From the NCBI GenBank assembly GCA_963697415.1, contig CAVONW010000003.1:2106706-2170705 (forward strand): a stretch of DNA of 64,000 nucleotides. Direction: 5' to 3'. This DNA is from an uncultured Chloroflexia bacterium (lineage in GTDB: Bacteria; Chloroflexota; Limnocylindria; Limnocylindrales; CSP1-4). The translations under genes were made by a program, and so were the position numbers. The notes under the pieces were generated by a model. That model was not told where the DNA came from, ran no database searches, and worked only from the letters and a program-made list of their open reading frames with translations. Of the stretch, positions 5,124-56,369 are shown one piece after another. Within the stretch, counting starts at the first letter, position 1. Every line of letters starts with the position of its first letter.

Positions 5124-5687
5124 CTAATCCCGCGCGAGTCGTCGGGCAGCGCGAATCAGCGCGAACTGGTCGACATACGCCTCGCGGATGGTGTTGAGCG
5201 TCGGACGATCGACGCCGAGCTCCTTGGCGATCCCGTTGATAACCTGGGCCTCGTCGCTCGAGATCTCGTCGTCCGCAGCGCCGACCGCGAAGCAAGCGCG
5301 CAGGACGGCCAGCTTCTGGGCGTCCGACGCGAACCCTGCGAACTCGCGCGTCACGAGGTAGTCCTCCGTCCCGAACTTCGCCCGCGCCTGGAGCTTGGCC
5401 ATCTGGACCACGAGAACGGCCTGGGCCTCGTCAAGCTCACCGAGCTCGTGGACCGCCGACTCCATCACGGTAGTCTCGTCGTCGCCGATGTCGAGGTCGG
5501 CGTGAGCCGCGCGCGCCAGGATGTAGGCGAACCCGGCCAGGAACCGCGCCCGTTCGACCGGAAGGGAGTCGAGGCGCGCGACGATCCGACGAACGGTCTC
5601 GGTCTCGCCCGCGGCGGAACTAGCCGCAGATCCTTCCGCCACTGGATCGGAGGCGGGCGCCCTGATCAGACGATCGAGGAAGGACAT
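5124..5687 (-). CDS. TerB-family (tellurite-resistance TerB / DjlA N-terminal-like) protein
   Basis: The protein starting MSFLDRLIR... has two TerB-like halves (..ARFLAGFAYILARAAHADLDIGDDE.. and ..LAVLRACFAVGAADDEISSDEAQVINGIAKELG..). The ORF-track 5' extension to 5867 would overlap a tRNA, so the gene was truncated to ATG 5687. Confidence 0.6.
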   Translation of the reverse strand: MSFLDRLIRAPASDPVAEGSAASSAAGETETVRRIVARLDSLPVERARFLAGFAYILARAAHADLDIGDDETTVMESAVHELGELDEAQAVLVVQMAKLQARAKFGTEDYLVTREFAGFASDAQKLAVLRACFAVGAADDEISSDEAQVINGIAKELGVDRPTLNTIREAYVDQFALIRAARRLARD

Positions 5688-5872: not shown

Positions 5873-6556
5873 ATGACCGCGTCCTCCCGGCGACCGATGC
5901 TAGACTCGCGCCGCTTCAGTATCGCCGTCCGGAGGACCCCCCTGGCCGTGGAGGATCGTCGCTCGAGCACGGCGTCCGATGATCCCGCCCAGCGGCGCGA
6001 CCTCGTACTCATCGCGCAGGCACGCGGCGGGGACCTGAACGCGTTCAACGACCTCGTCCTCTGCTACCAGGACCTGCTCTACGCACTGGTCGTCCGGATG
6101 GTCCCGGACCGGGACCAGGCAGCCGACGCGGTTCAGGAGGCGTTCTTCTCCGCGTATCGAAACTTGCACGCCTTCCGCGGCGGCTCCTTCCGGTCGTGGA
6201 TCAGCCGGATCGCGATCAATGCCGCAATGGATGCTCAGCGCCTGAAGAAGCGGCGGCCCGCGGATCCGTATCCGGAGTTCGAGGACGACAGCTGGCAGCC
6301 GCCGGCGACGGAGGCAGACGATCCGGTCACCACGACGCTCCAGGCGGAGCGGCATCGGGCCCTCAACGGCGCGCTGGCCCGGATCACGGATGACCAGCGG
6401 ACCGCGATCGTCCTGTTCGATGTCGAGGGCTATGACTACGCCGAGATCGCCGGGCTGATGGGCGTCTCCCTGGGCACCATCAAGTCGCGTATCCACCGGG
6501 GTCGGCTCGCGCTCCGCGATCTCCTCGCCGACCGGATGGACCTGTTCCGTGCCTGA
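5873..6556 (+). CDS. ECF (sigma-70 family, group 4) RNA polymerase sigma factor
   Basis: Region 2 (LVLIAQARGGDLNAFNDLVLCYQDLLYALVVRMVPDRDQAADAVQEAFFSAYRNLHAF) and region 4 (LARITDDQRTAIVLFDVEGYDYAEIAGLMGVSLGTIKSRIHRGR) are both present. The true start is uncertain; alternatives are ATG 5897 and GTG 5948, and the gene lies only 46 nt from the tRNA. Confidence 0.8.
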   Translation: MTASSRRPMLDSRRFSIAVRRTPLAVEDRRSSTASDDPAQRRDLVLIAQARGGDLNAFNDLVLCYQDLLYALVVRMVPDRDQAADAVQEAFFSAYRNLHAFRGGSFRSWISRIAINAAMDAQRLKKRRPADPYPEFEDDSWQPPATEADDPVTTTLQAERHRALNGALARITDDQRTAIVLFDVEGYDYAEIAGLMGVSLGTIKSRIHRGRLALRDLLADRMDLFRA

Positions 6557-8062: not shown

Positions 8063-10984
8063 ATGGAACGCCTGATGCTGCTCGACGGCAACGGGCTCAT
8101 CTACCGCGGCTACTTCGCGCTCCCGCCCCTGTCGACCTCGAAGGGCGAGCTCGTGAATGCGGTATTCGGGTTCTGCAGCATCGTCCTGCGCGGGATCCAG
8201 GACATCAGGCCGGACTACGTGGCCGTTGCCTTCGATCTGCCCGGCCCGACGTTCCGACACGAGCGCTACGCGGACTACAAGGCCACGAGGACGCGCATGC
8301 CGGACGACCTCCGGGACCAGTTCCCGAAGGTGCGCGAGGTCGTGAAGGCCCTCCGCCTCCCGGTCTTTGAACTCGCCGGATTCGAGGCAGACGATGTCAT
8401 CGGAACGCTCACCGTCGAGGCGGAGGCGAAGGGGCTCGACACGACGATCGTGACCGGCGACCTGGACATGCTCCAGATCGTGAGCGATCGAACGCGCCTG
8501 ATGACGACGCGATCGGGGGTTGAGAACACGATCCTGTACGACCCGCCGAGGATCGACGAGCGCTACGGCCTGCGGCCGTCGCAGATGATCGACTACAAGG
8601 CCCTGAAGGGTGACGTGACCGACAACATCCCGGGCGTCCCGGGTGTAGGCGAAAAGACCGCAGCCAAGCTCATTCGCGAGTTCGGGGACCTCGACAGCGT
8701 GTACGCGCGGCTCGACGAGGTGAAGCCCGACAAGTTGCGCGAGAAGCTGACGGAGCACCGTGACCAGGTGTTCCTCGGGCGCGAGCTTTCGACGATCGTC
8801 CGGGATCTGCCCGTCCACCTGGATCTCGAAGCAGCCCGCCTGCACGACTACGATCGCGATGAGGTCATCCGGCTGTTTCGCGAGTTCGAGTTCCGGTCCT
8901 TGCTGGACCGGCTCCCTCCGCTCCGTGGTGAATCCGCAACCGACGCGGTCGAGGCGATGCGGGCGGCGACCCCCACGGTTCCGGCGGCTCGCGTGGGCAC
9001 GGACCGACCGAGCGGGTGGGGGAGCGGCCGCCCGATCCGAACAGGCTCCTCGCCAACCGCACCGCCCACCCCGGCGTCAGCGGCGGGCCTCCAGCTTTCG
9101 CTCGACTTCGATGCCGTTGGGGGAGGCGCCGGGTCCGGCGCCGGTCCTCGGGCAGCCCGCGCCCCGGCGCACTTCGAGGACCTGCCGACCGCCCTGGCCG
9201 CCACGATCGAGGATCCAGGACGGATCGAGATCCTCGGGGGCGATGACCTGGATGACCTGAGCGATTGGATTGCGGCCCAGCAGGAGCTTGGTGCCGCCCT
9301 CGTACTGGACGATCCGCGGCCTCGGATGGGCTCAGCCCTCGCATTGGCGATCGCGGGCACGGACGGCCGGGTCGTCGCGGCGGAAGGCGCCGACGCCGTC
9401 CGGCTCCGGCACATCGTTGAGGCCATTGGCGTTCCGATCGTCGCGCACGAGGCGAAGCCGCTCCTCGTCGCCCGGTTCGCCGAGGACTCGGAGGGTCCGG
9501 CGACGAGCGTTGCGTTCGACACCCAGATCGCGGCCTATCTGCTCAATGCCGCCCTGCGCTCGCAGTCGATTGCCGATGTCGTCGCCGAGCGCCTCGATCT
9601 CGTGCTCCCGCCCGCGAAGGAGCTCAGTGCGGTGGACCGCGCCGGGCTGGAGGCCCTGGGCGCCATCGCGTCGCGCGAACCACTCACCGTCGCGCTTGAG
9701 GCGGAGGGTCTCGATCGGCTCTTCGCGGAACTCGAGATGCCGTTGATCCCGGTCCTGGCGCGGATGGAGGCCGTGGGTGTCGCCGTCGATCTCGACGCGC
9801 TGGCCGTTCTCGATCTCGAGTTCAGGGCGGAGATCGCGAGGCTGGAGCAGGCGATCTACGACGCCGTCGGCCACGAGTTCACGATCGGCTCGCCCAAACA
9901 ACTCGGCGAGGTGCTGTTCGGTGAGCTCCAGCTCCCGAAGGGCCGCAAGACGAAGACCGGCTACTCGACAGACGCCACCGTCCTGGAGGAGCTGGTGGAC
10001 GTCCATCCGGTCGTTCAGCCCGTCCTCGACTGGCGGATCTACACGAAGCTCCGCTCGACGTATGTCGAGGCCCTGCCGGCCCTCATCGCGGACGACGGTC
10101 GCCTCCACACGACCTTCCACCAGGCCGTCGCGGCCACCGGACGGCTGTCCTCGTCCGACCCCAACCTGCAGAACATCCCGATCAGGACGCCGCTCGGGCG
10201 ACGCATCCGGCGCGCCTTCGTGGCCGGCTCGCCGGATCACGTGCTGGTCGCCGGCGACTACTCGCAGATCGAGTTGCGGATCATCGCCCACGTCTCGGGC
10301 GATGAACACCTTCGCGAGGCCTTTGCGCGCGGGGCAGACATCCACCGTGAAACCGCGGGCCGAGTCCTCCACAAGGCACCCGAGGAGGTGACCTCGGACG
10401 AGCGATCGATGGCCAAGATGGTCAACTTCGGGCTGGCCTACGGCATGAGTGACTTCGGGCTCTCGAGCCGGGCCGGGATCAGCCGCCAGGAGGCGCAGGA
10501 GTTCATCAACTCGTACTTCGCGGCCTACTCGGGGATCAGCTACTACATGCTCCACATCAAGGAGACGGCGCGCCGGGACGGGTTCGTCTCGACGCTTCTC
10601 GGGCGCAAGCGCCAGATCCCGGAGCTCAGGGCCGCCAACCCGTCCCTGCGCGGAGCGGGTGAGCGGATGGCGATCAACATGCCGATCCAGGGCACGGCCG
10701 CGGACATCGTGAAGATCGCGATGATCCGGCTCAACGAGCGCCTCGCTGACGACGGATTCCGGGCACGGCCGCTCCTCCAGGTCCACGACGAGCTCCTCCT
10801 CGAGGTTCCGAGAGACGAGGTCGATCGCCTCGTACCAGTCCTGCGCGAGGTGATGGAAGGGGCGCTCACGCTCGACGTCGCGCTGACCGTCGATATCAAG
10901 GCTGGGGACGACTGGGAATCCATGAACCCCGTCTCACGCCGGGATGCCGCGCTCGCTGAGGCCGGCGAGTTGCCGGTAGCCTGA
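8063..10984 (+). CDS. polA: DNA polymerase I (5'-3' exonuclease + degenerate 3'-5' exo-like region + polymerase domain)
   Basis: N-terminal 5'-3' exonuclease/FEN (LLDGNGLIYRGYFA.., HhH KALKGDVTDNIPGVPGVGEKTA). Polymerase motifs A/B/C are present (RRAFVAG..DYSQIELRI; KMVNFGLAYGMS; LLQVHDELLLE). Confidence 0.93.
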   Translation: MERLMLLDGNGLIYRGYFALPPLSTSKGELVNAVFGFCSIVLRGIQDIRPDYVAVAFDLPGPTFRHERYADYKATRTRMPDDLRDQFPKVREVVKALRLPVFELAGFEADDVIGTLTVEAEAKGLDTTIVTGDLDMLQIVSDRTRLMTTRSGVENTILYDPPRIDERYGLRPSQMIDYKALKGDVTDNIPGVPGVGEKTAAKLIREFGDLDSVYARLDEVKPDKLREKLTEHRDQVFLGRELSTIVRDLPVHLDLEAARLHDYDRDEVIRLFREFEFRSLLDRLPPLRGESATDAVEAMRAATPTVPAARVGTDRPSGWGSGRPIRTGSSPTAPPTPASAAGLQLSLDFDAVGGGAGSGAGPRAARAPAHFEDLPTALAATIEDPGRIEILGGDDLDDLSDWIAAQQELGAALVLDDPRPRMGSALALAIAGTDGRVVAAEGADAVRLRHIVEAIGVPIVAHEAKPLLVARFAEDSEGPATSVAFDTQIAAYLLNAALRSQSIADVVAERLDLVLPPAKELSAVDRAGLEALGAIASREPLTVALEAEGLDRLFAELEMPLIPVLARMEAVGVAVDLDALAVLDLEFRAEIARLEQAIYDAVGHEFTIGSPKQLGEVLFGELQLPKGRKTKTGYSTDATVLEELVDVHPVVQPVLDWRIYTKLRSTYVEALPALIADDGRLHTTFHQAVAATGRLSSSDPNLQNIPIRTPLGRRIRRAFVAGSPDHVLVAGDYSQIELRIIAHVSGDEHLREAFARGADIHRETAGRVLHKAPEEVTSDERSMAKMVNFGLAYGMSDFGLSSRAGISRQEAQEFINSYFAAYSGISYYMLHIKETARRDGFVSTLLGRKRQIPELRAANPSLRGAGERMAINMPIQGTAADIVKIAMIRLNERLADDGFRARPLLQVHDELLLEVPRDEVDRLVPVLREVMEGALTLDVALTVDIKAGDDWESMNPVSRRDAALAEAGELPVA

Positions 10985-10985
10985 G

Positions 10986-11984
10986 GTGCCCGAGCTCCCC
11001 GAGGTCGAGACGATCGCGCGGGATCTTCGGGGCCTCGTGGTTGGCGCCGAGATCACGCGCGCAACGTGTCACTGGGCCCGGACGCTCCGGACGCATGCGC
11101 CCGAGACCATCGGTCCGGCGCTGGCTAGCCGGCGGATCCTGGCCGTGGGTCGGCGCGGCAAGCAACTCGTCCTTGAGCTGTCCGGGGGCGTCGTCCTGAC
11201 TGTCCATCTCAAGATGACCGGGCAGTTGTTTGTCGTGCCCGCGGAGGCCCCGAGTGATCCGTATGTTCGCCTCGAGGTCACCTTCGCGGATGGGCGCGCG
11301 CTGCGCTTTCGCGACATCCGGAAGTTCGGGAAGATCGGGCTCTACCAGCTGGATCCCGCGACCGGCGAGGCCGTCCACGAGGCAGGCGGGGCCGCCGTCT
11401 TCGCGGGCACGGGGCCCGAGCCACTCGACGACGCGTTCACGCTGCGGGCCTTCCGTCACCGGCTTCGTGCACGTCACGGTCGGCTGAAGCCGCTCCTGCT
11501 GGACCAGTCGTTCGTGGCCGGGATCGGGAACATCTACGCGGACGAGGCACTCTGGGCGTCGCGCCTCCACCCGCTCCGCTCGGCTTCGACGCTCCGGCCC
11601 GCCGACGAGCGGCACCTGTACGAGGCGATCCGGAGGATCCTGGCCGAGGCAATCGTCCGTCGCGGAAGCTCGATCGATGACTACACGGCGCCCGAAGGCG
11701 ATGGCTCGATGCAGGAGCACCTGCTTGTCTACCAGCGAGCCGGCCAAGCCTGTCTGCGCTGCGGTCGGCCGATCCGGCGGATCGTGGTCGGCGCACGAGC
11801 GACCCACTTCTGCTCGTGGTGTCAACGACTTCCGGCAGCGGACCGGAAGGCCGCGGCCGCGATCCTCCGCGGCATGACGTCGGGCGATGCCGGATCGGTA
11901 CGCGCTCGTGACCGAGCGGATCGCACTCGGAAAGCCGCGGCCGGCCGACGGGCAGCCGCCCGGGCCTCCGCGGGCAGGCCCTGA
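10986..11984 (+). CDS. mutM: formamidopyrimidine-DNA glycosylase (Fpg/MutM) with basic C-terminal tail
   Basis: GTG start gives PELPEVE, the catalytic N-terminal Pro after Met removal. H2TH region is present, and the zinc finger CLRCGRPIRRIVVGARATHFCSWCQ is followed by an Ala/Arg-rich tail of about 50 aa. Confidence 0.9.
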   Translation: MPELPEVETIARDLRGLVVGAEITRATCHWARTLRTHAPETIGPALASRRILAVGRRGKQLVLELSGGVVLTVHLKMTGQLFVVPAEAPSDPYVRLEVTFADGRALRFRDIRKFGKIGLYQLDPATGEAVHEAGGAAVFAGTGPEPLDDAFTLRAFRHRLRARHGRLKPLLLDQSFVAGIGNIYADEALWASRLHPLRSASTLRPADERHLYEAIRRILAEAIVRRGSSIDDYTAPEGDGSMQEHLLVYQRAGQACLRCGRPIRRIVVGARATHFCSWCQRLPAADRKAAAAILRGMTSGDAGSVRARDRADRTRKAAAGRRAAARASAGRP

Positions 11985-14035
11985 TGTCCATCCTTCGGCT
12001 GGCCGGTGTCGCCCGTGAGGTCGGTGCGTTCGTCATCCTCGACGGGATCGAGGTCGCGATGGCGCTCGGTGATCGGATCGGTCTGGTTGGCCCGAACGGG
12101 GCCGGAAAGACGACGCTGCTCCGGATCGCGGCCGGTATCGACGAGCCGGACCGTGGCGTGGTCCACCGGAAGCGGGGCCTGACGCTCGGGCTGCTCGCCC
12201 AGGAGGCGCACCTGGACGAGACGTTCATGGCGGCGCCCAGCGTCCGGACTGCCGTGCGGCACGGGGCGGCTCACCTTGAGCGGATGGGGGACGAGCTGGC
12301 CGCCCTCGAGCGAGATGGGCGCGTGGCCGAGCCGGCCTACGCCGACCTGCAGCATCGGTTCGACGTGCTCGGTGGCTACACGCTCGACCAACGCGTGGAC
12401 GCCGCGCTGTCGGGCCTCGGGTTCACCGCCGAGGAAGTTGCCCGGGCACCAACGGGACTGTCCGGCGGCGAGCAGACCCGCGCTGCGCTGGCTCGCCTGG
12501 TCATCGCCGACCCGGACCTGCTCCTTCTCGATGAGCCCACGAACCACCTGGATCTCGGAGCCCTTGAGTGGCTGGAGGAGCACCTCCGGCGCCGGGCTGG
12601 ATCGCTCCTGGTCGCGTCGCACGACCGAGCGTTTCTCGACGCGACGGTGACCCGGATCTGGGAGATGCGGGACCGTCGGATCACCGTCTTCCGCGGCAAC
12701 TACTACGCGTACCACCGCCAGCGCGAGGAGCGGGATGCGCGCGCCGCGAAGGATGCCGAATCGCAGGGGGCCGCGATCGCGCGCGAAAAGGAGCTCGTGC
12801 AGCGCTATCGAAGCCACCGGAAGTACGCCAAGATGCACGAGCATGAGGCCCGGCTGGAGCGCCTCCAGGGCGCCGAGCTGGACGCTCCGAAGCCTTCCCG
12901 TCGACTACGTCTGCCGCAGGCCGCGCTCCTCGGCGGCGGGCCGACCCGGTCTGGTGAGATCGTGGCTCGGGCGGATGACCTTGTCATCGGTTACCTCCCA
13001 CCCCTTGGTTCGGGTGGTGTCCCCACGAGGGTCGCGACGGCCCCGTTCCTGGCCGCGCGGCGGGGCGATCGGATCGGGATCGTGGGGCCAAACGGGGCGG
13101 GCAAGACGACACTGCTTCGGACGATCGCCGGTGAGCTACCGGCACTCGATGGATCGCTGACGTTCGGCAGCGGCGTCCAGCTCGGGTATCTCGCTCAGCT
13201 GCGGGCCGCGGCGATCCCCGGCACCACGGTCCTCGATGCGATCCTGGAAGCGGCGCCCGTCACGCCCGGCGAAGGTCGCGGGTACCTGGCCCGGTTCCTG
13301 TTTCGGGGCGATGACGCCTTCAAGGAGGTCCGCCTCCTGTCGGGCGGCGAGCGCAGCCGGCTCGAGCTCGCGCTCCTGGGTGTCACGCCGGCGAACCTGC
13401 TCCTCCTCGACGAGCCCACGAATCACCTCGACATCGTGGCCCGTGAGGCCATCGAGGCCTTCCTCCGGGATGTGCCCGCGACGCTCCTCGTGGTGTCGCA
13501 TGATCGGCGCTTCCTCGAGACGATCTGCGAGCGTCTCTGGGTGGTGGACGGCGGGCTTGTCGCCACGTTCGAGGGCGGCTACCGGGTCTGGCGCGACGCC
13601 GTTGCCGACGGCTGGACGGTAGCCGCCACGATCGAGCTGGAGCGCCGGCGGCTTCATCCCGCGGCGCGCAGGACGAACGGCCAGCGGGCCCAGGAGCCAG
13701 CCGAGCTCGCGAAGGCCGGCGCCGGGCAAGGTGGACCCGATCTCGCAACGGGCATGGCGGCCGGAAATGCTCGCGCGGCGCGCGCCGCGGCCTCCGTGTC
13801 AACCCGGGGAGCCAGGTTGTCCAAGGATGCGTACCGGCGCCAGCGCGAGACGCTCGATGCCGAACTGACGCGTCTCAACCTGCGCAAGAACCATCTGGAG
13901 CTGGCTACCGGGGACCCTGCCGTGCAATCCAACTTCGTCGAGATGCGTCGGATTACGAGCGAGCTGGCCGATGTAGCATTGGCCCTGGCAGTCGCAGAGG
14001 ACGCGTGGCTGGCCCTCGAGGAGCGTGCCCCGTGA
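11984..14035 (+). CDS. ABC-F family ATPase (two nucleotide-binding domains, Uup/EttA-like, C-terminal coiled coil)
   Basis: Two Walker A motifs (GLVGPNGAGKTTLL and GIVGPNGAGKTTLL), two LSGGE signature motifs, and no TM domain. ATG overlaps the mutM stop (TGATG). Confidence 0.85.
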   Translation: MSILRLAGVAREVGAFVILDGIEVAMALGDRIGLVGPNGAGKTTLLRIAAGIDEPDRGVVHRKRGLTLGLLAQEAHLDETFMAAPSVRTAVRHGAAHLERMGDELAALERDGRVAEPAYADLQHRFDVLGGYTLDQRVDAALSGLGFTAEEVARAPTGLSGGEQTRAALARLVIADPDLLLLDEPTNHLDLGALEWLEEHLRRRAGSLLVASHDRAFLDATVTRIWEMRDRRITVFRGNYYAYHRQREERDARAAKDAESQGAAIAREKELVQRYRSHRKYAKMHEHEARLERLQGAELDAPKPSRRLRLPQAALLGGGPTRSGEIVARADDLVIGYLPPLGSGGVPTRVATAPFLAARRGDRIGIVGPNGAGKTTLLRTIAGELPALDGSLTFGSGVQLGYLAQLRAAAIPGTTVLDAILEAAPVTPGEGRGYLARFLFRGDDAFKEVRLLSGGERSRLELALLGVTPANLLLLDEPTNHLDIVAREAIEAFLRDVPATLLVVSHDRRFLETICERLWVVDGGLVATFEGGYRVWRDAVADGWTVAATIELERRRLHPAARRTNGQRAQEPAELAKAGAGQGGPDLATGMAAGNARAARAAASVSTRGARLSKDAYRRQRETLDAELTRLNLRKNHLELATGDPAVQSNFVEMRRITSELADVALALAVAEDAWLALEERAP

Positions 14036-14655
14036 CGGTTCGAATCGGGATCACCGGCCCCACCGGCTGCGGCAAGTCCACCGCGGCGGGTTGGCTGCGC
14101 GACCTGGGCGCCGTGATCGTGGACGCCGACCAGGTGGCGAGGGCCGTGGTTGAGCCCGGCGAGCCGGCGCTCGAGGCAGTCTTCGCCGCGTTCGGGGACG
14201 AGGTCCGTGCCGCCGACGGGCATCTTGATCGGGCGGCCCTCGGGCGCATCGTGTTCGCCGATCCGGCCGGGCTCAGCCGCCTGGAGGCAATCGTGCATCC
14301 GGCCGTGCGCCCGCGTATCCGCTCGGCTGTGGCCGCGGCAGAGGCGGCATCCGCGCCGGCCGTGGTCGTCGAGGCGATCAAGCTCTTCGAGAGCGGCCTC
14401 GTCGACGAATGCGACGAGAGCTGGCTGTTCGAGTGTGCGTCGGCTGAGCAGTGGGCGCGACTGGTGGCCCGCGGAGTCCCCCAGGCGGCCGCAGCGGCTC
14501 GAATCGCGGCGCAGGGCGCGATGGTGGATCGGCTCCGACCGCGCGCATCGCGCGTCATCGACACGTCCGGTTCAATCGAGGGCGCGCGCGCCCGGGTGAC
14601 TGCCGCATACGAGACCGCGCTGGCCGCCCCCCGCACTGCCGGTCCGCGGGCCTGA
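14032..14655 (+). CDS. coaE: dephospho-CoA kinase
   Basis: VTVRIGITGPTGCGKST P-loop and ..VIVDADQVAR... are present. GTG overlaps the ABC-F stop (GTGA). The gene lies in the conserved coaE-uvrB position. Confidence 0.8.
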   Translation: MTVRIGITGPTGCGKSTAAGWLRDLGAVIVDADQVARAVVEPGEPALEAVFAAFGDEVRAADGHLDRAALGRIVFADPAGLSRLEAIVHPAVRPRIRSAVAAAEAASAPAVVVEAIKLFESGLVDECDESWLFECASAEQWARLVARGVPQAAAAARIAAQGAMVDRLRPRASRVIDTSGSIEGARARVTAAYETALAAPRTAGPRA

Positions 14656-14668
14656 GGCGTCAGACACC

Positions 14669-14684
14669 TCGAACAGGTGTTCGA
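14669..14684. promoter_or_regulatory. LexA/SOS (Cheo) box TCGAACAGGTGTTCGA, about 30 nt upstream of uvrB
   Basis: Perfect match to the actinobacterial/Gram-positive LexA operator TCGAAC-N4-GTTCGA. A TAGACT -10-like hexamer sits at 14697-14702. Confidence 0.6.
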
Positions 14685-14713
14685 AAGCGAGTTTCGGCTG
14701 ATAGACTTGGCCA

Positions 14714-17029
14714 GTGCCAGATTTCAAGCTCGTCGCCCCGTTCGAGCCGACCGGTGACCAACCCCAGGCCATCGCGCGCCTGACTGCGGGTCTCGAGAAG
14801 GGGCTCCGTCACCAGACGCTGCTGGGAGCGACGGGCACGGGCAAGACGGCCACGATTGCCTGGACCATCCAGGCCGCAAACCGCCCGACCCTCGTGCTCG
14901 CCCACAACAAGACCCTGGCCGCCCAGCTCTATGCCGAGCTCCGCGAGTTCTTCCCCGAGAACGCGGTCGAGTACTTCGTGAGCTACTTCGACTACTACCA
15001 ACCCGAGGCGTACCTGCCCCGGTCGGACACCTACATCGAGAAGGACTCGAGCCGGAACGACGAGATCGACCGGCTTCGCCATGCAGCGACGCACGCCCTG
15101 TTCGAGCGGCGAGACGTGATCGTCGTGGCGTCGGTCAGCTGCATCTACGGCATCGGGGCGCCGGTCGACTACGGCGCTACGGTCCTTCGCCTCCGCGTCG
15201 GCGGGCAGTACCGGCGGGACGCCGTGCTCCGGCACCTGGTGGACCTCCAGTACCAGCGCAACGACCAGGCCCTGACGCGGGCGCGCTTCCGGGTCCGGGG
15301 GGACACGCTCGAGTTCCAGCCGGCATCCGAGGACCGGCTCGTCCGGGTCGAGTTCTTCGGCGATGAGATCGAGCGGATCACCGAGCTGGATCCCCTGACC
15401 GGCGAGCTCCTCATGGAGCGCCGTGACATCAACGTCTACCCAGCAACGCACTACGTGACGCCGACGGACAAGCTCCAGGCCGCGGTCGTGGACATCGAGG
15501 CCGAGATGGAGGAGCGGGTCGGCCAGCTGGAGGCCGAGGGTCGCGCACTCGAAGGTGCACGTCTCCGCCAGAGGACCACGTTCGACATGGAGATGCTCCG
15601 CGAGCTCGGCTACTGCTCCGGTGTCGAGAACTACTCGCGCCACCTGTCCCGCCGGGACGCGGGCAGCCGCCCGTGGACGCTCCTCGACTACTTTCCGCCC
15701 GACTGGCTGCTCGTCGCCGACGAGTCGCACATGACGATTCCGCAGGTCGTGGGCATGTACAAGAACGATCGAACGCGGAAGGAGATCCTCGTCGACTTCG
15801 GGTTCCGGCTGCCGTCCGCCCTGGACAACCGGCCACTCACCTTCGAGGAGTTCGAGGCAACCGTCCACCAGGCGATCTACATGTCCGCGACGCCCGGTCC
15901 CTACGAGCTGGAGCGGAGCGAGCAGATCGCCGAGCAGCTCATCCGCCCGACCGGCATCGTCGATCCGATCATCCACGTCCGTCCGACCGAGGGTCAGATC
16001 GACGACCTCCTCGAGGAGATTCGACGGCGCGTGGAGCGCGGCGAGCGGGCGATCGTCACGACGCTCACCAAGCGCATGGCCGAAGACCTCACCGACTACC
16101 TGCGCGAGCTCGGTGTCAAGGTCCAGTACCTCCACGCCGAGGTGGACACGCTGGAACGCGTCGCGATCCTGCGCGATCTCCGGCTCGGGATCTATGACGT
16201 CATCGTCGGGATCAACCTCCTCCGCGAAGGGATCGACCTGCCCGAAGTCACCCTGGTCGCCATCCTCGATGCCGACAAGGAGGGCTTCCTGCGCAGCGCC
16301 TGGTCGCTCATCCAGATGACGGGCCGGGCGGCCCGGAACATCGGCGGCGAGGTCGTCATGTACGCCGATCGGATCACCGATTCGATGCGCGCGGCGATCG
16401 ACGAGACGAATCGCCGGCGGGCGCTCCAGGAGCGCTACAACCAGGAGCACGGGATCGAGCCGCGGACGATCATCAAGGGCATCCGCGATCTCAACGACCA
16501 GCTTCGCGCGGTCGCGGAGTCCACGGTCGTGTACGCATCCGAGCGCGAAGCGCGGGACGCGCGGCTGGTTGAACTGGACGCGAAGAAGGTCGAAGAGCTC
16601 GTTGCCCGCATGGAGGCCGAGATGCGCTCTGCCGCGAAGCAGCTTGAGTTCGAGCGTGCGGCCGCACTCCGGGACGAGATCCAACAGGTCCGATTCCGCG
16701 TCCTCCAGGAAGACCAGTCGGTGATCGTCGGCCGGGCGGCGGAGATTGCGGCGAAGGCACGGCCGGCGGCGCGCCAGGACCGATGGACGTCCCCGGAACC
16801 CGAGGCCCCCGCCCTCGAGGTCACATCGGTGACGGTGCTGCCGGCGAGCGAGGAGCCGAGCGACGCCGAGGGTTCTGGTACGGCCTCGGACTGGCTGCCC
16901 GGCATCCGCGACGAGCACGAGGACGAGGCCGGCTGGCAGGCCCGCTGGCTGGACCGGCCCACGTGGGACCGGACCGTCACCCCGAACATCCGGAAGCGGA
17001 CCGGATCGCGGCCGGCTCGGCGACGCTGA
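14714..17029 (+). CDS. uvrB: excinuclease ABC subunit B (UvrB) with about 100-aa C-terminal extension
   Basis: GTG start gives [19 protein letters not shown].., with helicase motifs, beta-hairpin and UVR domain (..[17 protein letters not shown]). An acidic, Trp-containing extension follows the UVR domain. Confidence 0.95.
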
Positions 17030-17030
17030 C

Positions 17031-17867
17031 ATGCGCTTCGCGATCGACATCGCGCCGCTCGGCGACCTGGCGGATCCAGTGGCGATCGTGCGTCTGGCCC
17101 GGGCCGCCGAGGCGTCCGGATGGGATGGCCTGAGCATCTGGGATTCGCTCGGCGTGTCGATAGGGACGGTCGCCGCGGACCCCTTCGTTGCCCTGACAGC
17201 GGTCGCCGCCGCGACCCAACGGCTCCGCCTCATCATCTCTGTCGCGGTGCTTCCGAGGCGCCGAGCGCAACTCGTCGTTCAATCGGCCGGCACTCTTGAT
17301 CGGATCAGCGGCGGGCGGTTGATCCTGGGTGTGGGGGCAGGGGGCGATCCAGGCGACTTCGAGGCGTTCGGTGAGGGAGCCCCACTGGCCGATCGTGTGG
17401 CCCGGATGGATGCCGCGCTCGCGGTCATCGACCCGTGGCTGCGAGGCGAGGCAGCGCACCTGGAAGGTCCGGGCGCCGTGGACGTGATCGTCGGACCGCG
17501 ACCGATCCAAGCCCCGCGGCCACCAATCTGGCTCGGCGGGATGCGCCCGGGTGCGCTTCGTCGCGCGGCTCGGTGGGATGGCTGGATCGCGATTGCCGTC
17601 TCGGATGATGGGTCGTCGATGGTGCTGGCTCCCGACACGCTCGCGACGATGATCGGCAACGTGCATGCCGAGCGCGCCGCCATGGGGCGTTCAGCGGACC
17701 CGTTCGACATCGCGGTGTTCGCCTTCAGTGAACCGGACAAGCCGGAGATCGCGCAGGCCTATGCAGATGTCGGCGCCACCTGGTGGCTCGAAAGCCTGTC
17801 CCCGATGAGAGGCTCAATGGAGGCGCTGCTCGCGGTCGTCGAGGCGGGCCCGCCCCGGCTGACCTGA
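17031..17867 (+). CDS. luciferase-like monooxygenase (LLM) class flavin/F420-dependent oxidoreductase
   Basis: MRFAIDIAP...[17 protein letters not shown]... TIM-barrel LLM signature. Start is 1 nt after the uvrB stop. Confidence 0.7.
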
Positions 17868-17887
17868 CAAGGGGACGCTTCCAGCGC

Positions 17888-17903
17888 ACGAACACTTGTT
17901 CGA
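17888..17903. promoter_or_regulatory. LexA/SOS (Cheo) box ACGAACACTTGTTCGA, about 30 nt upstream of uvrA
   Basis: 15/16 match to TCGAAC-N4-GTTCGA; the GAAC-N4-GTTC core is perfect. Confidence 0.55.
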
Positions 17904-17931
17904 TTTGGTGCCGTTCCGCTACACTGACGTC

Positions 17932-21011: not shown

Positions 21012-21344
21012 GTGGCTGAGCGCGATAGCCTGCCTGCGCGGCACGAGACGCCGGAGATCGACGCCGCGGCCCTGGCAGTGGCTCGGGCGGCGGATATCCT
21101 GCTCGCGGCGGCGGTCGAAGTTGGCTCGGAGCGCTGGGCGCGCTATCTGGCCACCATGCCGGACCGCTTCCGTGACGACCCGATCCCGTCGTTGCGAGCC
21201 GCCGCCCGTGCCGGTCGTTCCGCCTTCGGGCCGAAGGACTCCATTCGGGACACGCTGCCCGAGTCGGCCACGGAGCCGTTCCTTGCCGCCGTCGACCGGC
21301 TCCTCAAGTTGATCGCTCGCTGGGAGGTCCACCGAGGCGCCTGA
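21012..21344 (+). CDS. hypothetical protein
   Basis: 110-aa ORF with GTG start and no recognisable motif. It converges on the ICMT-like gene. Confidence 0.3.
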   Translation: MAERDSLPARHETPEIDAAALAVARAADILLAAAVEVGSERWARYLATMPDRFRDDPIPSLRAAARAGRSAFGPKDSIRDTLPESATEPFLAAVDRLLKLIARWEVHRGA

Positions 21345-21849: not shown

Positions 21850-21858
21850 CCGGAGATC

Positions 21859-23469
21859 CTACGCCGCGGGCCCGAGCTCCCATGGATCGAAGGCCTCGTG
21901 GAGGAACTGGGACGGCGCGTCCGGGTCGTAGACCAGCGTCAGCGAACGTCGTGCGCGTGTCCACGCAACGTAGGCGAGTCGGCGCTCCTCCTCGAGCGCG
22001 CGCTCCGGATCCTCGGCGTCTGCGATGGAGCGGGCGCTCGGAAAGCGTCCCGCATCAAGTCCGATGACGGCGACGTGATCGAACTCGAGGCCCTTTGTCC
22101 CGTGCGCGGTGGCGAGGGTCAGCGCCGCTTCGTCACGACGGAGCCGAGCCAGGCGGCCGCGCACCTCCTCGATCGCGGCGCTGAGCGCCGGGAGGTCACG
22201 CTGGGCCGGGGCCCAGGCGAGCAACGCCTCGGCCGCCTCGCTGCGCTCGTCGTTCGCCTGCGTGCCTGCTTCCGCGCGAACTTGCGCCAGCCGGACGAGC
22301 AGCGGAGCATCGCCCGGGATAGCACGAGCCCGCTGGAGCAACTGATCGACCTGCGGTGACTCAACGATGAGCTGGAGATCCCCGGCACGGAACGGGACGT
22401 CCAGGGCGAGGCACGCGACGATCGCCGGCAACAGCTCACGGTTCGTGCGGGCGAGGATCGCGCGCGCGCCGTCGTCCTCGGGCCACGACTGAAGGACGGC
22501 AGCGCATCCGGCGCCGGCGTCTGCCCTTGACGGTGCGAGGATCAACGGTCCGGGCGCCTCGGGCCGTGCCCGGATCACCTTCACGAATCGCTCTCGGTTG
22601 TGCTCAATGAGGCGAACTGCTCGGCCGATGACCGTCGCCGGGCATCGGTAGTTCGTCACGAGATCCACCCGCCAGAGTCCCGGCAGGGCGGTCTCGGCCA
22701 GGCCGAGCAGGCGCCGAACGTCGGCGAGGCGCCAGCCGTAGATCGACTGATCGTCGTCGCCCACGAGGAAGATCTGGTTGGCCGGTGCCGCCAGCAGGAG
22801 CGCCATCCGGAGCTGCATCCGATCCAGATCCTGGGCTTCGTCCACCAGGAGGTGGACGCATCGGGCGCGCCACCGCGCGAGGATGTCTGGGCGCTGTTCG
22901 AGCAGACGCACGCCCCGGACGACGAGGTCGTCGAAGTCGAGTCCGCCTGCGGCGGCGATCGCTCGCTCGTACGCCACGAACGCCCGGGCGATCGGCCCGG
23001 CCTGCGGGTCGGCCGCGACCTCCTCTACGTCCACCGCCAGGTCCAGCTTGAACCGCGAGATCACGTTGTCGAGGCGCCGGAGCTCGGCGAGCTCAGCGGT
23101 CGGGAGCACGGATCGGAGGACTGTCTCGCGGTCCATAAGCGGAGCGACCGGTCCGCCGGCGTCACGCAGCATCTCGAGACCGAGCGCGTGGAAAGTCCGG
23201 ACGCGGACGGGATCCGCGCTCACGGGCATGGCTCCCGCGAGCCGCTCGGTCAATTCCTCGGCCGCGCGGCGGTTGAACGTGACCGCGGTGATCGTCGCCG
23301 CATCGGCGCCGCCATCCACCAGCCACGCGATCCGCGCCACGAGCGTCGTCGTCTTCCCGCTCCCAGCCGGCGCCACACACAGCACCGGACCGGGTGGGGC
23401 CGTCGCGGCCGCGCGCTGGTCCGGGGCAAGCCGGTCGAGCCGCTGTTGAACCGATGCGCCGTGGGCCAC
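21859..23469 (-). CDS. UvrD/Rep/PcrA-family (superfamily 1) DNA helicase, compact 536-aa form
   Basis: PVLCVAPAGSGKTTTLVARIAWLV (Walker A), ...LLVDEAQDLD (motif II), and C-terminal ..TLATAHGTKGLEFDHVAVIGL...RRLAYVAWTRARRSL (motifs V/VI). Confidence 0.8.
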   Translation of the reverse strand: MAHGASVQQRLDRLAPDQRAAATAPPGPVLCVAPAGSGKTTTLVARIAWLVDGGADAATITAVTFNRRAAEELTERLAGAMPVSADPVRVRTFHALGLEMLRDAGGPVAPLMDRETVLRSVLPTAELAELRRLDNVISRFKLDLAVDVEEVAADPQAGPIARAFVAYERAIAAAGGLDFDDLVVRGVRLLEQRPDILARWRARCVHLLVDEAQDLDRMQLRMALLLAAPANQIFLVGDDDQSIYGWRLADVRRLLGLAETALPGLWRVDLVTNYRCPATVIGRAVRLIEHNRERFVKVIRARPEAPGPLILAPSRADAGAGCAAVLQSWPEDDGARAILARTNRELLPAIVACLALDVPFRAGDLQLIVESPQVDQLLQRARAIPGDAPLLVRLAQVRAEAGTQANDERSEAAEALLAWAPAQRDLPALSAAIEEVRGRLARLRRDEAALTLATAHGTKGLEFDHVAVIGLDAGRFPSARSIADAEDPERALEEERRLAYVAWTRARRSLTLVYDPDAPSQFLHEAFDPWELGPAA

Positions 23470-23609: not shown

Positions 23610-25607
23610 ATGGCGACGCCGGCCATCCTCGAAGTAGCGGCTCACAGTCTCGCCGCGGTCCTGGGGATCTGGTTGGGTCTGACCGTCGTGACCCGCGCGG
23701 CATCTACCGCCTCGCGGGTCTTCGCGCTGCTCTCACTGTCGGTCGCGACGTGGAGCAGCAGCGTTATCGTGCAGCGCCTCTCGATATCGGCAGCCGCCGG
23801 CACGGCCGGCCACTTCATCGAAGAGCTCATGGCGGCCCTCGCGATTGCAGCCACGGCCCATTTCTCTCTGGCGATTGCGTCCGAGGGGTTCCCGACGACT
23901 GGTCGGCGCCGGGTGATCCTGGGCATCTACCTTGCGAACCTCGTGTTCGCTGCGCCGACGATCCTCAAGACGGTCACGGAGCCGCCCCAGCTGACATCCG
24001 AACCGCTGGTGGGGTCACTGTTCTTCTGGGGCTGGGTCGCCGTCCGGCTTGGTGCGCTCGCCACCGGAGCATTCTGGCTGGGACAGGCCTTGCGGGTGGC
24101 GTCGGCCGGCAGCCTGCGGAGTCGTCAACTCCGGGCCGCGCTTGCCACGGTCGCGACCGGGGGTGTCGGCGGAGCAATGCGGTTCATTCCGGTCATCGGC
24201 GACCTTGACGCCTGGATCGGAGTCTCACTCGTGGCCCTTGGCGTGGTGTTCGCGGCGTATGCGGTCTTCTCGGCGGGCATCTTCTTTGGGCCGGCGGTGG
24301 CGGGACGGGCATTCCGGTCGTCACTGGTCGGCGGGTTCGGCCTCTTCCTGGTGCTCGCCATGGTCCTCGGGGTTGAGACGGCGAGCCGCAATGCCACCGG
24401 CCTCGATCTGCCGGTCTTCACGGCGATGGCCCTGATCATGGCGGTCACGCTGCGTGACCCGGTATCCCGGCGACTCCGAGAGCGGCTGAGTGGCGATGGA
24501 CCGCGATCGGCCGCGCGCCGCCGTCTGCTCCTGGCGCTCGGCCAGCCGGGCTTGACCGCACATCCGGCCGAAGCCAGCGTCCTGCCTGCCCTTGACCGGC
24601 TCGCGCGAGCCCTCGATGTTGTCGGTCTCACGGTGGTCCGATCTGATGGCTCGATCGTCGCCACGGAGGGGCTGGGTGGGCGGCTCGGCGGGATCGAGCC
24701 GATTCCGCTCGTGTCGAACGGCGAGCTTCTCGGAGAGCTGAGAATCGGCGATACGGTCACCGGCGCTGCCCTCAGTGCCCACGACGAGGACCTGCTACGA
24801 ATGTCCGCCGCCTACGTCGCCGCTGCTCTCCGAACCGGTCGCCGTGAGGACGAGCAGATGGAACGGCTGGCCACCCTGGCCGCCGAGCGCGCCGCCGTCC
24901 AGTCCCAGGCTGAGACGCTCCACGCCGCCCTCCTCCAGCACGCCGATGCCCCGGCCGGGCTCCGCATCCATGCCCTCGGGCCGCTGCATGTCGAGCGCCT
25001 GGGTCAGTCGATCGAGCGCTGGGGTGGGGACAAGGCAGGCACGCGCCAGGCCCAGGGCCTGTTCGCCTTCCTGTTCGATCGGGGCGAGCGAGGCGTGACC
25101 AAGGACGAAGCGCTCGAGCTGATCTGGCCCGACACGGACATCGAGCGAGCTGACCTGGCCTTCCACCGGACCATGGTCGGCCTCCGCCAGACGCTGGATG
25201 CGCGCCGCGGCGGACGCACAAGCGGGACAATCCGCTTCCACAACGACCGGTATCGGCTGGACCCGGAGATCGTCGAGTGGTCGGATGTGCGGACGTTCCT
25301 GGCCCGGCTGGATGCCGCCAAGGCCGCGCCGGACGCGTCGGAGCGCCTCGCGCTCCTCGAGGAGGCGCGAGAGCTCTACCGCGGCGACTACATGGACGAC
25401 TGCCCGTTCTACGGCGACAGCGTCGAGGTCGAGGAACAGCGCGCGCATCTGCGAGCACGGGCCACGGACCTCCGCGTCGCGATCGGTGAGGCCTACGAGG
25501 CGTCGGGAGATCGGTTGTCCGCTGCCGCGGCCTTCCGGGAGGCGATTCGCGGCAACCCCGACGGATGCCCTCCGGCCGAGGCCGGCCTGGTTCGACTGGG
25601 GCTCTGA
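23610..25607 (+). CDS. membrane-anchored SARP-family regulator: N-terminal polytopic (about 7 TM) domain + central region + OmpR/PhoB-type winged helix + BTAD (bacterial transcriptional activation) domain
   Basis: About 250 aa of hydrophobic helices come first. Then ..LRIHALGPLHVERLGQSIERWGGDKAGTRQAQGLFAFLFDRGERGVTKDEALELIWPD.. is a SARP wHTH. Then ..WSDVRTFLARLDAAKA...LLEEARELYRGDYMDDCPFYGDSVEVEEQRAHLRARATDLRVAIGEAYEASGDRLSAAAAFREAI is the BTAD/TPR-like domain. Confidence 0.7.
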   Translation: MATPAILEVAAHSLAAVLGIWLGLTVVTRAASTASRVFALLSLSVATWSSSVIVQRLSISAAAGTAGHFIEELMAALAIAATAHFSLAIASEGFPTTGRRRVILGIYLANLVFAAPTILKTVTEPPQLTSEPLVGSLFFWGWVAVRLGALATGAFWLGQALRVASAGSLRSRQLRAALATVATGGVGGAMRFIPVIGDLDAWIGVSLVALGVVFAAYAVFSAGIFFGPAVAGRAFRSSLVGGFGLFLVLAMVLGVETASRNATGLDLPVFTAMALIMAVTLRDPVSRRLRERLSGDGPRSAARRRLLLALGQPGLTAHPAEASVLPALDRLARALDVVGLTVVRSDGSIVATEGLGGRLGGIEPIPLVSNGELLGELRIGDTVTGAALSAHDEDLLRMSAAYVAAALRTGRREDEQMERLATLAAERAAVQSQAETLHAALLQHADAPAGLRIHALGPLHVERLGQSIERWGGDKAGTRQAQGLFAFLFDRGERGVTKDEALELIWPDTDIERADLAFHRTMVGLRQTLDARRGGRTSGTIRFHNDRYRLDPEIVEWSDVRTFLARLDAAKAAPDASERLALLEEARELYRGDYMDDCPFYGDSVEVEEQRAHLRARATDLRVAIGEAYEASGDRLSAAAAFREAIRGNPDGCPPAEAGLVRLGL

Positions 25608-26244: not shown

Positions 26245-26472
26245 GGCGGTCCGGCGTTCGCCAAGACGACCAGCGTGCCTCTGGGTTCAGAAGGCAGATG
26301 GCCCGGACAACCTCGCCCCGTTCGGCACGCCCGACTGGACCTGGAAGCGCGAGGGCGGTCAGCTCCAACTGTTCATGGATGAAGCACCTCGCCTCCTGGG
26401 CCTGGAGACGACGTCGCCGCGATTGCGACAGCGTCACGCCTGACTCGTCACTCCCCGCCGTAGGATTGCGGC

Positions 26473-36176: not shown

Positions 36177-37106
36177 ATGGCGAGCGAGGAACGCATCCCG
36201 CCCGACGGCGGCGAGCCGAACCCGGATCCCGAGACGGGCGCCGACCCTCCCCACGTCGTGATCCTGAGCGGGCTGTCCGGTGGCGGCAAGACCGCGGCCG
36301 CCAAGCTGTTTGAGGACCTCAACTACGTCGTCGTCGACAACCTGCCGGGCGAGCTCCTGGCGAACCTGGCTGATCTGGTCTCGGCAGACCGGACGCGCTA
36401 CGCCCGCGTAGCCATCGTGCTCGATGTGCGGGCCGGTGACGCGGAGACGGCGTACCGGGCGATGCGCGGCGCGCTCGAGGGGCGGGGGATCCGGCCGCAG
36501 GTCTTCTTCCTCGAGGCTCGGGATGATGTTCTGATCCGGCGCTTCTCCGAGACCCGCCATCGACACCCTCTTGGCGAAGGCCGTGGCGTCGCCGCCGCGA
36601 TCGCCGACGAACGAGTCCTCCTGGATCCGGTCCGGGCCGAGTCAGACGTCGTCCTCGATACGTCGGATCTCTCGCTCCGCGAGCTGCGTGAGCGCCTCTT
36701 CGTACGCGTCAGCGGTCTCGTGCCGGACACGATGGCGATCCAGCTGATCAGCTTCGGGTTCAAGTTCGGCGTGCCCCTCGAGGCGGATCTCGTGTTCGAT
36801 GCGCGGTTCCTCCGCAATCCGTACTACATCCCCGAGCTGCGCGACCACTCCGGGCTCACCGAGCCGGTCCGGGACTATGTCCTGGGCCAGCCGGCCACAA
36901 GTCGTTTCCTCGATCTCCTCAAGCCACTCCTCGCGTTCTCGATCCCGGCCTTCAAGGAAGAGGGCAAGAGCCGCCTGACCATCGCGATCGGCTGCACCGG
37001 CGGTCAGCACCGATCGATCGTGCTGGTCGAGGAGCTCGCGACCTGGCTTCGATCAGCAGGCCATGAACCGGTGGGCGTGTTCCACCGCGAGCTGGAGCGC
37101 CGATGA
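36177..37106 (+). CDS. rapZ: RNase adapter / nucleotide-binding protein RapZ (YvcJ)
   Basis: VVILSGLSGGGKTAAAKLFEDLNYVVVDNLP.., and C-terminal ..IAIGCTGGQHRSI. The ORF-track entry 35502..37106 is an artefactual 5' extension through tatC. Confidence 0.85.
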   Translation: MASEERIPPDGGEPNPDPETGADPPHVVILSGLSGGGKTAAAKLFEDLNYVVVDNLPGELLANLADLVSADRTRYARVAIVLDVRAGDAETAYRAMRGALEGRGIRPQVFFLEARDDVLIRRFSETRHRHPLGEGRGVAAAIADERVLLDPVRAESDVVLDTSDLSLRELRERLFVRVSGLVPDTMAIQLISFGFKFGVPLEADLVFDARFLRNPYYIPELRDHSGLTEPVRDYVLGQPATSRFLDLLKPLLAFSIPAFKEEGKSRLTIAIGCTGGQHRSIVLVEELATWLRSAGHEPVGVFHRELERR

Positions 37107-38449
37107 ACCTGCGCCGCTGGCTGACGCCCGGGATCGGGATCAAGCGGTGGCTCGGCGTCGTATTCCTGGGCCTGCTCCTCCTCGCCCTCGCCGTCGCGCA
37201 CGTCGTTCGACAGGTCAGCGCGGGGCTCCAGCCCGGTGGGCCGGTGGGCGCCGTCATCGATGCCGCGACCCTCCAGTTCCTGCCGTACGCCCTGCGCGGG
37301 CTCATCGTCGGGGTACTGGGTGCTGGCTTGGTGGTGATCGGTGGCGTGCGAGTGGTGCGGGCGGTCACGGAGCCGCTGCGCGCGGCGCACGAGGAGCAAC
37401 CCCTGGTCGAGGTCATCTACCAGAAGCGGTTCCTCGCGCGCGGTCCGCGGATCGTGGCCATCGGCGGCGGAACCGGGCTGTCGGCGTTCCTCCGGGGGAT
37501 GAAGGAACACACGAGCAACCTCACCGCCATCGTGACCGTCGCCGACGATGGCGGATCGTCGGGCGCTCTCCGGACGGACCTCGGCATTCCGCCGGTCGGC
37601 GACATCCGAAACTGCATCGCCGCCCTGGCCGACGCCGAACCACTCATGCGGGACCTCCTCGGCTACCGCTTCCCCGCCGGTCAGCCGGACGACCTGCCGC
37701 CGGCCGACACCGTACCCGGTGGCCTTGGTGGCCACGCGATCGGGAACCTGCTGATCGCCGCGCTGACGGCGGTCCAGGGCGGGGACTTCGAGGAGGGTGT
37801 CCGCCGGATGAACCGCGTGCTCGCGGTGCGCGGTCAGGTCCTCCCTGTCTCGCCGACGCCGATCACGCTCCACGCCCGGACCACGAATGGGGTGGTCGTG
37901 TCCGGCCAGTCCAACGTCATGCGCACCGCGGGGATCGAGCGCGTCTGGATCACTCCGGCAGACGTCGCGCCGGCCACTGACGCCCTCGCGGCGATCGCCG
38001 AAGCCGACGTCATCGTCCTGGGTCCGGGCAGCCTGTTCACGAGCCTGCTGCCGGCACTCCTGGTGCCGGGGATCGGCGCCGCAGTTGCCGCGGCGTCCGC
38101 TGTGCGGGTCTACATCTGCAATGTCGCGACGCAGGCCGGCGAGACCGCCGGATACGACCTGGCGGACCACGTGGATGCACTTGCCGCCCATACGAACCCC
38201 GGCCTCGTGGACGTCGTGCTGGCCAATGACCAATTCGATGCTCGCGTGCCCGAACAATGGGTGGCCGAATCGGTCCGGCTTCGGTGGCCCCCGGCGGGCT
38301 CTCGGGCCCCGATTCTCGTCACCGAGGACATCGTCGATCACGGGAATGCCCATCGTCACGATCCGGAACGCCTGGCCGGTGCGGTCCTCCGTATCGCGGA
38401 GCGCGAACTGGCGGCGCGGCGTCGGGCCGGCGCGTCCCGGACGGCCTGA
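37103..38449 (+). CDS. YvcK/CuvA-family (UPF0052, CofD-like) gluconeogenesis/cell-wall factor with N-terminal membrane-anchor extension
   Basis: ..RIVAIGGGTGLSAFLRGMKEHTSNLTAIVTVADDGGSSG.. The first 100 aa or so contain two hydrophobic helices (WLGVVFLGLLLLALAV; LIVGVLGAGLVVIGGV). ATGA overlap with rapZ. Confidence 0.8.
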   Translation: MNLRRWLTPGIGIKRWLGVVFLGLLLLALAVAHVVRQVSAGLQPGGPVGAVIDAATLQFLPYALRGLIVGVLGAGLVVIGGVRVVRAVTEPLRAAHEEQPLVEVIYQKRFLARGPRIVAIGGGTGLSAFLRGMKEHTSNLTAIVTVADDGGSSGALRTDLGIPPVGDIRNCIAALADAEPLMRDLLGYRFPAGQPDDLPPADTVPGGLGGHAIGNLLIAALTAVQGGDFEEGVRRMNRVLAVRGQVLPVSPTPITLHARTTNGVVVSGQSNVMRTAGIERVWITPADVAPATDALAAIAEADVIVLGPGSLFTSLLPALLVPGIGAAVAAASAVRVYICNVATQAGETAGYDLADHVDALAAHTNPGLVDVVLANDQFDARVPEQWVAESVRLRWPPAGSRAPILVTEDIVDHGNAHRHDPERLAGAVLRIAERELAARRRAGASRTA

Positions 38450-56233: not shown

Positions 56234-56369
56234 CGCGGGTAGGATACTCGGGCCCGACGTTGACCGTGCCCGGGTGGATCGGCGACCGTGCCGACACCAC
56301 GCGGTTCGCCCTACCACCTCGCGAGGCCCGATGTTCCGACCCGTTCCAGCACGCCCGGATCTCGTCACG

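Follow-up and report, generated by a model that had tools for sequence, protein, structure and literature searches.

The uvrB-uvrA locus

The 64-kb stretch analysed here (hereafter the window), part of contig CAVONW010000003.1 of an uncultured Chloroflexia bacterium, carries the genes of the damage-recognition pair of nucleotide excision repair (NER), uvrB and uvrA, with a gene for a luciferase-like oxidoreductase of the LLM class placed between them (the LLM gene). Both repair genes are preceded by a short palindrome of the form GAAC-N4-GTTC, which would make them targets of the SOS repressor LexA, and the LLM gene follows uvrB so closely that it would probably be expressed along with it (Table 1). 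The identity of the two repair genes is clear, since UvrB and UvrA both exceed the curated NCBIfam equivalog cutoffs over their full length.

Table 1. Coordinates of the features discussed, in the window unless a related locus (L plus number) is given
Feature	Position	Strand	Remarks
coaE	14005-14655		NCBIfam
Candidate LexA-type operator (SOS box) of the uvrB promoter	14669..14684	.	overlaps -35 region
-10-like hexamer TAGACT, 6 nt before uvrB GTG	14702..14707	+	putative leaderless-type promoter
uvrB, 771 aa	14714..17029	+	NCBIfam NF003673, 1036 bits vs cutoff 743
LLM-class (luciferase-like) flavin/F420-type oxidoreductase, 278 aa	17031..17867	+	Pfam PF00296
Candidate LexA-type operator of the uvrA promoter	17888..17903	.	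overlaps -35 region
-10-like hexamer TACACT, 6 nt before uvrA GTG	17920..17925	+	putative leaderless-type promoter
uvrA, 1021 aa	17932..20997	+	NCBIfam NF001503, 1496 bits vs cutoff 1147
Conserved ~45-nt block upstream of uvrB	L109 ~5190-5240; L112 ~6320-6370; L147 ~1920-1970; L151 ~1530-1580		loci lacking the uvrB box
Examples of uvrB-uvrA slot contents	L094:817-2256; L090:1321-1632; L139:737-1279; L116:3472-5037		

The box before uvrB, TCGAAC-AGGT-GTTCGA (TCGAACAGGTGTTCGA), is a perfect palindrome around its 4-nt spacer, while that before uvrA, ACGAAC-ACTT-GTTCGA (ACGAACACTTGTTCGA), is palindromic in the inner 14 nt. From the 16-mer to the start codon there are 29 nt in the case of uvrB (GTG at 14714) and 28 nt in the case of uvrA (GTG at 17932). 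Both starts are backed by homologues that align from residue 1. A TTG at 17896, given as the uvrA start in a mechanical list of open reading frames (ORFs), was rejected, because it lies inside the box and the homologues align from residue 1 at 17932. The two boxes had been reported in an earlier note on this DNA, and both are present as described there.

Exact copies of CGAAC-N4-GTTCG occur twice in the window (14670-14683 and 17889-17902), against 0.16 expected, and both are intergenic; one in 100 shuffled sequences also reached two. The shorter core GAAC-N4-GTTC occurs three times, versus 0.69 expected. Its third copy (48909) was rejected as an operator since it lies inside the 3' end of ssb, and the one-mismatch sites at 33751, 48050 and 54523 were discarded because each of them falls within coding sequence. 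When one or two mismatches are allowed, the motif is not enriched in the window (65 sites, versus 54 expected). In the 200 nt upstream of the other repair genes examined (dnaE, polA, fpg, the UvrD-like helicase gene, uvrC, recJ and ssb) no box was found, the best site having 2-4 mismatches against the ten specified bases. The statement of the earlier note that dnaE, polA, uvrC, recJ, ssb and the UvrD-like helicase gene are without a box holds as well.

Conservation of the boxes in related loci

Related loci were collected by running a lineage-specific probe, the conserved C-terminal tail of UvrB, against metagenome contigs, which gave 80 loci; five more (L161-L165) came from look-ups anchored on the LLM gene. 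The comparison covered about 90 related loci. Their 43 distinct upstream regions of uvrB include 31 with an intact GAAC-N4-GTTC core and five with one mismatch; of the 41 distinct regions upstream of uvrA, 34 have the intact core and seven differ from it by one base. In the 31 uvrB and 35 uvrA distinct promoters that bear a box, every base of the GAAC and GTTC half-sites is the same throughout and the spacer and flanks vary, the consensus being CGAAC-GCCC-GTTCG for uvrB and cGAAC-ACCT-GTTCg for uvrA. The spacing is nearly fixed: the 14-mer stops 29 nt short of the start codon at most uvrA loci, and at nearly all uvrB loci with a box the distance is 29-36 nt. Measured from the core, the gap is 30-37 nt at the intact uvrB boxes and 30 nt at 23 of the 34 intact uvrA boxes.

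Outside these promoters the motif is almost absent. A perfect 14-mer was absent from all 1,820 control windows, each of 120 nt, taken from coding sequence of these loci, and of the 76 core sites in 629 kb of DNA from the lineage, 70 lie at uvrA or uvrB promoters and six in coding sequence, the latter being about the chance level (~5 expected from base composition). The boxes seem to be functional operators of the GAAC-N4-GTTC (Cheo or actinobacterial SOS-box) type, which is supported by the invariant half-sites next to a variable spacer and variable flanks, by the fixed distance at which they would overlap the -35 region, and by their near-absence elsewhere in the 629 kb. That the two palindromes of the window arose by chance, as could be argued from there being just two of them and from the one shuffled sequence that matched this number, is effectively refuted by their equal distance to two functionally paired genes and by the conservation of the motif in about 65 distinct orthologous promoters.

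Promoter layout

Neither uvrB nor uvrA in the window is preceded by a Shine-Dalgarno sequence, and both have a -10-like hexamer just before the start codon (Table 1). The same layout is found in the relatives, where a TAnnnT hexamer, mostly TAGACT or TACACT, stands exactly 6 nt before the start in 27 of 35 uvrA and 16 of 31 uvrB promoters; in the others the distance is 7-9 nt. Transcription therefore probably begins at the start codon or immediately beside it, which would make the uvrB and uvrA mRNAs leaderless. Because of this start position, the box would span about -43 to -30 and cover the -35 region, and its right arm (TTGTTC or TGTTCG) may double as a weak -35.

With such an overlap, the conserved sequence could conceivably be a mere promoter element (-35 or UP-like) and no repressor site at all; the right arm lies at the place where one would look for a -35 and keeps a constant distance to the -10. 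However, the left arm, GAAC, is equally invariant despite its place upstream of any possible -35, and together with the right arm it makes up a perfect dyad. In addition, uvrC (start 26473) and an ORF on the minus strand (21849) have leaderless-type promoters with the same -10 layout but without the box, which argues that the dyad is an operator and not a general feature of promoters in this organism. A role as promoter element only is thus very unlikely.

Within the window, the combination of a TAnnnT hexamer at precisely 6 nt from the start codon with no Shine-Dalgarno sequence is found at 26455-26472 (uvrC), 21850-21867 (ORF 21849, minus strand), 14702-14713 and 17920-17931, which suggests that leaderless transcripts may be common in the host. 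The rpsF and ssb genes instead have ribosome-binding sites of the GGAG type.

The LLM gene behind uvrB

The stop codon of uvrB (TGA, 17027-17029) and the ATG of the LLM gene (17031) are separated by a single nucleotide, as the earlier note had observed. A Pfam Bac_luciferase domain (PF00296) is present in the encoded protein and in all homologues listed (best 120), and those of the listed matches that have an organism name are mostly from Candidatus Limnocylindrales. The best NCBIfam model is TIGR03619 (Rv2161c family), matched over near full length with 145.5 bits, and the next-best matches are also F420-type LLM subfamilies. The protein resembles the F420-dependent oxidoreductases of TIGR03619 in having this as its top model and in its Bac_luciferase domain, but differs in that its score is below the curated cutoff of 166.9 and that its solved relatives are remote (SsuD and Mer at E ~1e-12, F420-dependent oxidoreductases at ~1e-6). 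TIGR03619 would hence be its closest subfamily, with the score staying short of membership at the curated cutoff, and the product is probably an F420- or flavin-dependent oxidoreductase. The one ORF of the window with a Pfam match to CofD (37103-38449) was rejected as a sign of F420 biosynthesis, as it is of the YvcK type (TIGR01826, 310 bits); it carries an N-terminal extension of ~115 aa beyond the model.

Compared with ten orthologues, the LLM gene has a dN/dS of 0.16-0.31, which indicates that it is functional and under purifying selection. It lies directly behind uvrB in at least 14 related loci. In 11 loci, the window included, the two genes overlap or are at most 20 nt apart: they overlap by 1 nt (TGATG) in L120, L128, L132 and L145, are separated by 2-3 nt in L102 and L140, and by 14-20 nt with a GGAGG-like site in L127, L142, L149 and L156. 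Seen from the LLM gene, uvrB is immediately upstream in four of five contexts (L161, L163, L164 and L165). No box precedes the LLM gene in any locus examined, and a scan of the window revealed neither a terminator-like nor a promoter-like site between uvrB and the LLM gene or uvrA. Because tight or overlapping junctions recur and neither a box nor a terminator lies between the genes, the LLM gene is probably co-transcribed with uvrB, in line with what the earlier note had proposed.

Roughly 70 of the uvrB-anchored loci contain some sequence 3' of uvrB, many of them being short; only about 11 of these carry the LLM gene. Loci with the LLM gene occupy at least four positions in an approximate tree of UvrB, which fits an old linkage to uvrB followed by repeated loss. 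In L099, a partial N-terminus of the LLM gene directly follows uvrB (1053-1250), and in L001 a remnant is left that consists of the first ~23 and last ~24 codons (12373-12441 and 12519-12590). Such remnants seem to indicate loss of the gene by internal deletion.

Probable regulation by LexA

The consensus CGAAC-ACCT-GTTCG of the relatives agrees with the published LexA motif of Firmicutes and Actinobacteria, which is of the CGAAC-N4-GTTCG type and of which variants have been reported for Chloroflexi (PMC4951493). The same paper, citing Fernandez de Henestrosa et al. (2002, J Bacteriol 184:6073), mentions a Gram-positive-type binding sequence for LexA of Dehalococcoides ethenogenes, so that by this account there is a precedent within the phylum, albeit in the class Dehalococcoidia and not in Limnocylindria. 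In the Dehalococcoidia loci of uvrB that were retrieved (L009 and L027), the 250 nt upstream of the gene contain no box. The earlier note had called the motif the LexA operator of Actinobacteria and Firmicutes; its reading as an operator is supported by the conserved behaviour of the sites, while the attribution has to be adjusted, given that the host belongs to the Chloroflexota, a phylum for which the motif has been reported before (PMC4951493).

The present boxes share with the Cheo box of Bacillus subtilis (CGAAC-N4-GTTCG) and the mycobacterial SOS box (TCGAAC-N4-GTTCGA) the dyad, the 4-nt spacer, the flanking C/G, the A/T preference beside the half-sites and the placement in promoters of DNA-repair genes. 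Unlike those, they occur in a Chloroflexota (Limnocylindria-like) host, are fixed on the -35 of apparently leaderless promoters, and are predicted rather than known to bind LexA.

The LexA motif of Escherichia coli is a different one, CTGT-N8-ACAG. Both uvrA and uvrB are under SOS control in E. coli, as is the uvrBA operon (dinA) in B. subtilis, and the two are core SOS genes across many phyla. The same two genes of NER damage recognition would thus be controlled by LexA here as in these two model organisms, but where B. subtilis has one box for its uvrBA operon, the present lineage has a box and a promoter for each gene, and accessory genes may intervene.

Following these results, we consider it likely (with a probability of roughly 0.85) that the palindromes are LexA operators on the uvrB and uvrA promoters and that the LLM gene is induced together with uvrB. 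The operators would be those of the SOS repressor LexA, of the Gram-positive or actinobacterial GAAC-N4-GTTC type, each lying on the -35 of a sigma-70-type promoter whose -10 is 6 nt before the GTG, so that a bound LexA dimer would block RNA polymerase. Upon DNA damage, activated RecA would stimulate the self-cleavage of LexA, by which uvrB and uvrA would be derepressed. The LLM gene would be transcribed with uvrB, since it starts 1 nt past the uvrB stop and lacks its own promoter signal, box and terminator; it would probably be translationally coupled to uvrB as well, and be induced along with it.

A number of observations weigh against this scheme. Scanning with the strict sigma-70 consensus yields no promoter at this locus, and for that reason the promoter assignment rests on the conserved -10 and its spacing. 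The uvrB box is missing in seven loci (L002, L109, L112, L116, L129, L147 and L151), which except for L116 form one clade in the UvrB tree, and control of uvrB by the box does not appear to be universal; for uvrA, no loss was seen in any of the 41 distinct upstream regions. Neither lexA nor recA gave a tblastn match in the window or in L001-L160, all of it uvrB-centred DNA, with LexA of E. coli and B. subtilis and RecA of E. coli as probes. The closest relative, L081 (UvrB 96% and UvrA 98% identical), has no LLM gene, its uvrA following 58 nt after uvrB, and compared with the window the boundary of this presence or absence is clean. The LLM gene is degraded in L001, as described above, and in L162 an orthologue lies in a different operon, behind a gene of the dihydroorotate dehydrogenase family and without a box. 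Finally, unrelated genes occupy the uvrB-uvrA gap in other loci.

The clade without the uvrB box has in common a different conserved stretch of ~45 nt upstream of uvrB (GACCCGCCCGGAG..TCGGTGGGGTACGAAGAGGCTA; Table 1). The -10-like hexamer that follows it is TACAGT in L112, L147 and L151, and of the TAGATT type in L109. The stretch matched neither a tRNA nor an Rfam family, and both were rejected as its identity; it may be an alternative regulatory site.

It could be that the operators belong to another, lineage-specific regulator of NER genes instead of LexA. This would fit with the restriction of the motif to uvrA and uvrB in ~670 kb of related DNA (apart from coding sites at chance level) and with the lack of a lexA gene in the uvrB-centred DNA of the lineage. 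On the other hand, other members of a regulon could not have appeared, because the sampled DNA was chosen around uvrB. Moreover, down to its spacer preference the motif is the one that LexA recognises in Firmicutes and Actinobacteria and that has been reported for Chloroflexi, and the two genes concerned are those that many phyla place under SOS control. A dedicated regulator is accordingly considered unlikely, and LexA would be the best-supported candidate.

As for the LLM gene, it might also be driven by a promoter of its own in the 3' end of uvrB and escape SOS control, its position being the neutral outcome of a variable slot. The many unrelated genes that the slot hosts would agree with this, as would the absence of the gene in the sister locus L081, its degradation in L001 and the one orthologue elsewhere (L162). 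Against it stand the 1-nt spacer or overlap with the uvrB stop that recurs in diverged loci, the position of uvrB upstream in four of five LLM-anchored contexts, the at least four places in the UvrB tree, by which the junction must have been kept for long, and the lack of any promoter-like or terminator-like site found. Independent expression is rather improbable on this balance, and co-transcription with uvrB is preferred. Most likely the LLM gene is one of several accessory genes that use the variable uvrB-uvrA slot. The earlier note had regarded it as an unusual member of the SOS regulon; its co-expression with uvrB is supported, but as an accessory gene in a variable slot, absent in L081, it is better described as passively co-expressed until shown otherwise, as nothing ties it to a repair step. 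A literature search found no paper that links LLM enzymes to a LexA regulon.

The uvrB-uvrA interval and other features of the window

Across the relatives (L002, L081-L165), the interval between uvrB and uvrA behaves as a cargo slot whose length varies between 45 nt and 5.5 kb. Besides the LLM gene, it can contain genes for pyruvate kinase, hypothetical proteins of 103 aa and ~190 aa, GNAT and DinB_2 proteins, an FkbM methyltransferase, a two-component system and a sigma factor (examples in Table 1); the recurrent 103-aa and ~190-aa hypotheticals have no Pfam match. In L082 (94% identical), there is no uvrA within 10 kb 3' of uvrB, which is followed by a gene for a RES-domain (toxin-like) protein (10830-11384).

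UvrB of the window extends ~110 aa past the UVR domain (residues ~661-771, encoded at 16694-17026). This tail, of which the last ~45 residues are strongly conserved, is present in L001, L002 and L081-L160; it has no Pfam match and is absent from the fetched UvrB loci of other phyla. An apparent match in an actinomycete locus (L066) was rejected as a low-complexity artefact.

Judged from its sequence, the window is of Limnocylindria-like Chloroflexota origin. Among species-representative genomes, the nearest UvrB loci are from metagenome-assembled genomes named Chloroflexi or Candidatus Limnocylindrales, with 78-85% identity, all others being at most 63% identical. The host lineage is one of Chloroflexota from soil and freshwater, and its class, Limnocylindria, is abundant but uncultured and has received little study.

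The other genes of the window include dnaE, polA, fpg, a gene for an ABC-F protein, the UvrD-like helicase gene, uvrC, secDF, recJ and tatC, and further yvcK, rpsF-ssb, ilvE, ileS, lspA and gmk. Several sizeable ORFs with coding-like GC content at third codon positions (GC3) had no Pfam or NCBIfam match at the thresholds used (23610-25607, 21012-21344, 52623-54362 and 54422-56485 (minus strand)); one of these family-less ORFs encodes 665 aa and lies between the UvrD-like helicase gene and uvrC.

Implications

The SOS arrangement at uvrA and uvrB is in itself ordinary and leaves the understanding of the SOS response unchanged. What is modestly new is the fixed layout of operator, -35 and apparently leaderless start, the fact that uvrB and uvrA, divided by a cargo slot, each have their own box, and the repeated occurrence of the uvrB-LLM operon, itself a minor novelty. 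The Gram-positive-type LexA operator would now extend to the uncultured class Limnocylindria, and a leaderless-type promoter layout is documented for uvrA, uvrB and uvrC in this lineage. For genome scans of the SOS regulon of Limnocylindria, the resulting motif layout would be CGAAC-N4-GTTCG on the -35, followed by TAnnnT, 6 nt and the start codon.

A further possibility, which we regard as doubtful, is that the LLM protein, probably F420-dependent, is a damage-inducible NER partner in Limnocylindria, held in translational coupling with uvrB through long evolution because it acts on a genotoxin, a DNA lesion or a repair intermediate. If this were true, it would constitute a new enzymatic arm of the SOS regulon. 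Nothing so far marks the LLM gene as more than accessory, but its recurring operon with uvrB provides a specific candidate, open to testing, for a damage-induced enzyme outside the canonical set.

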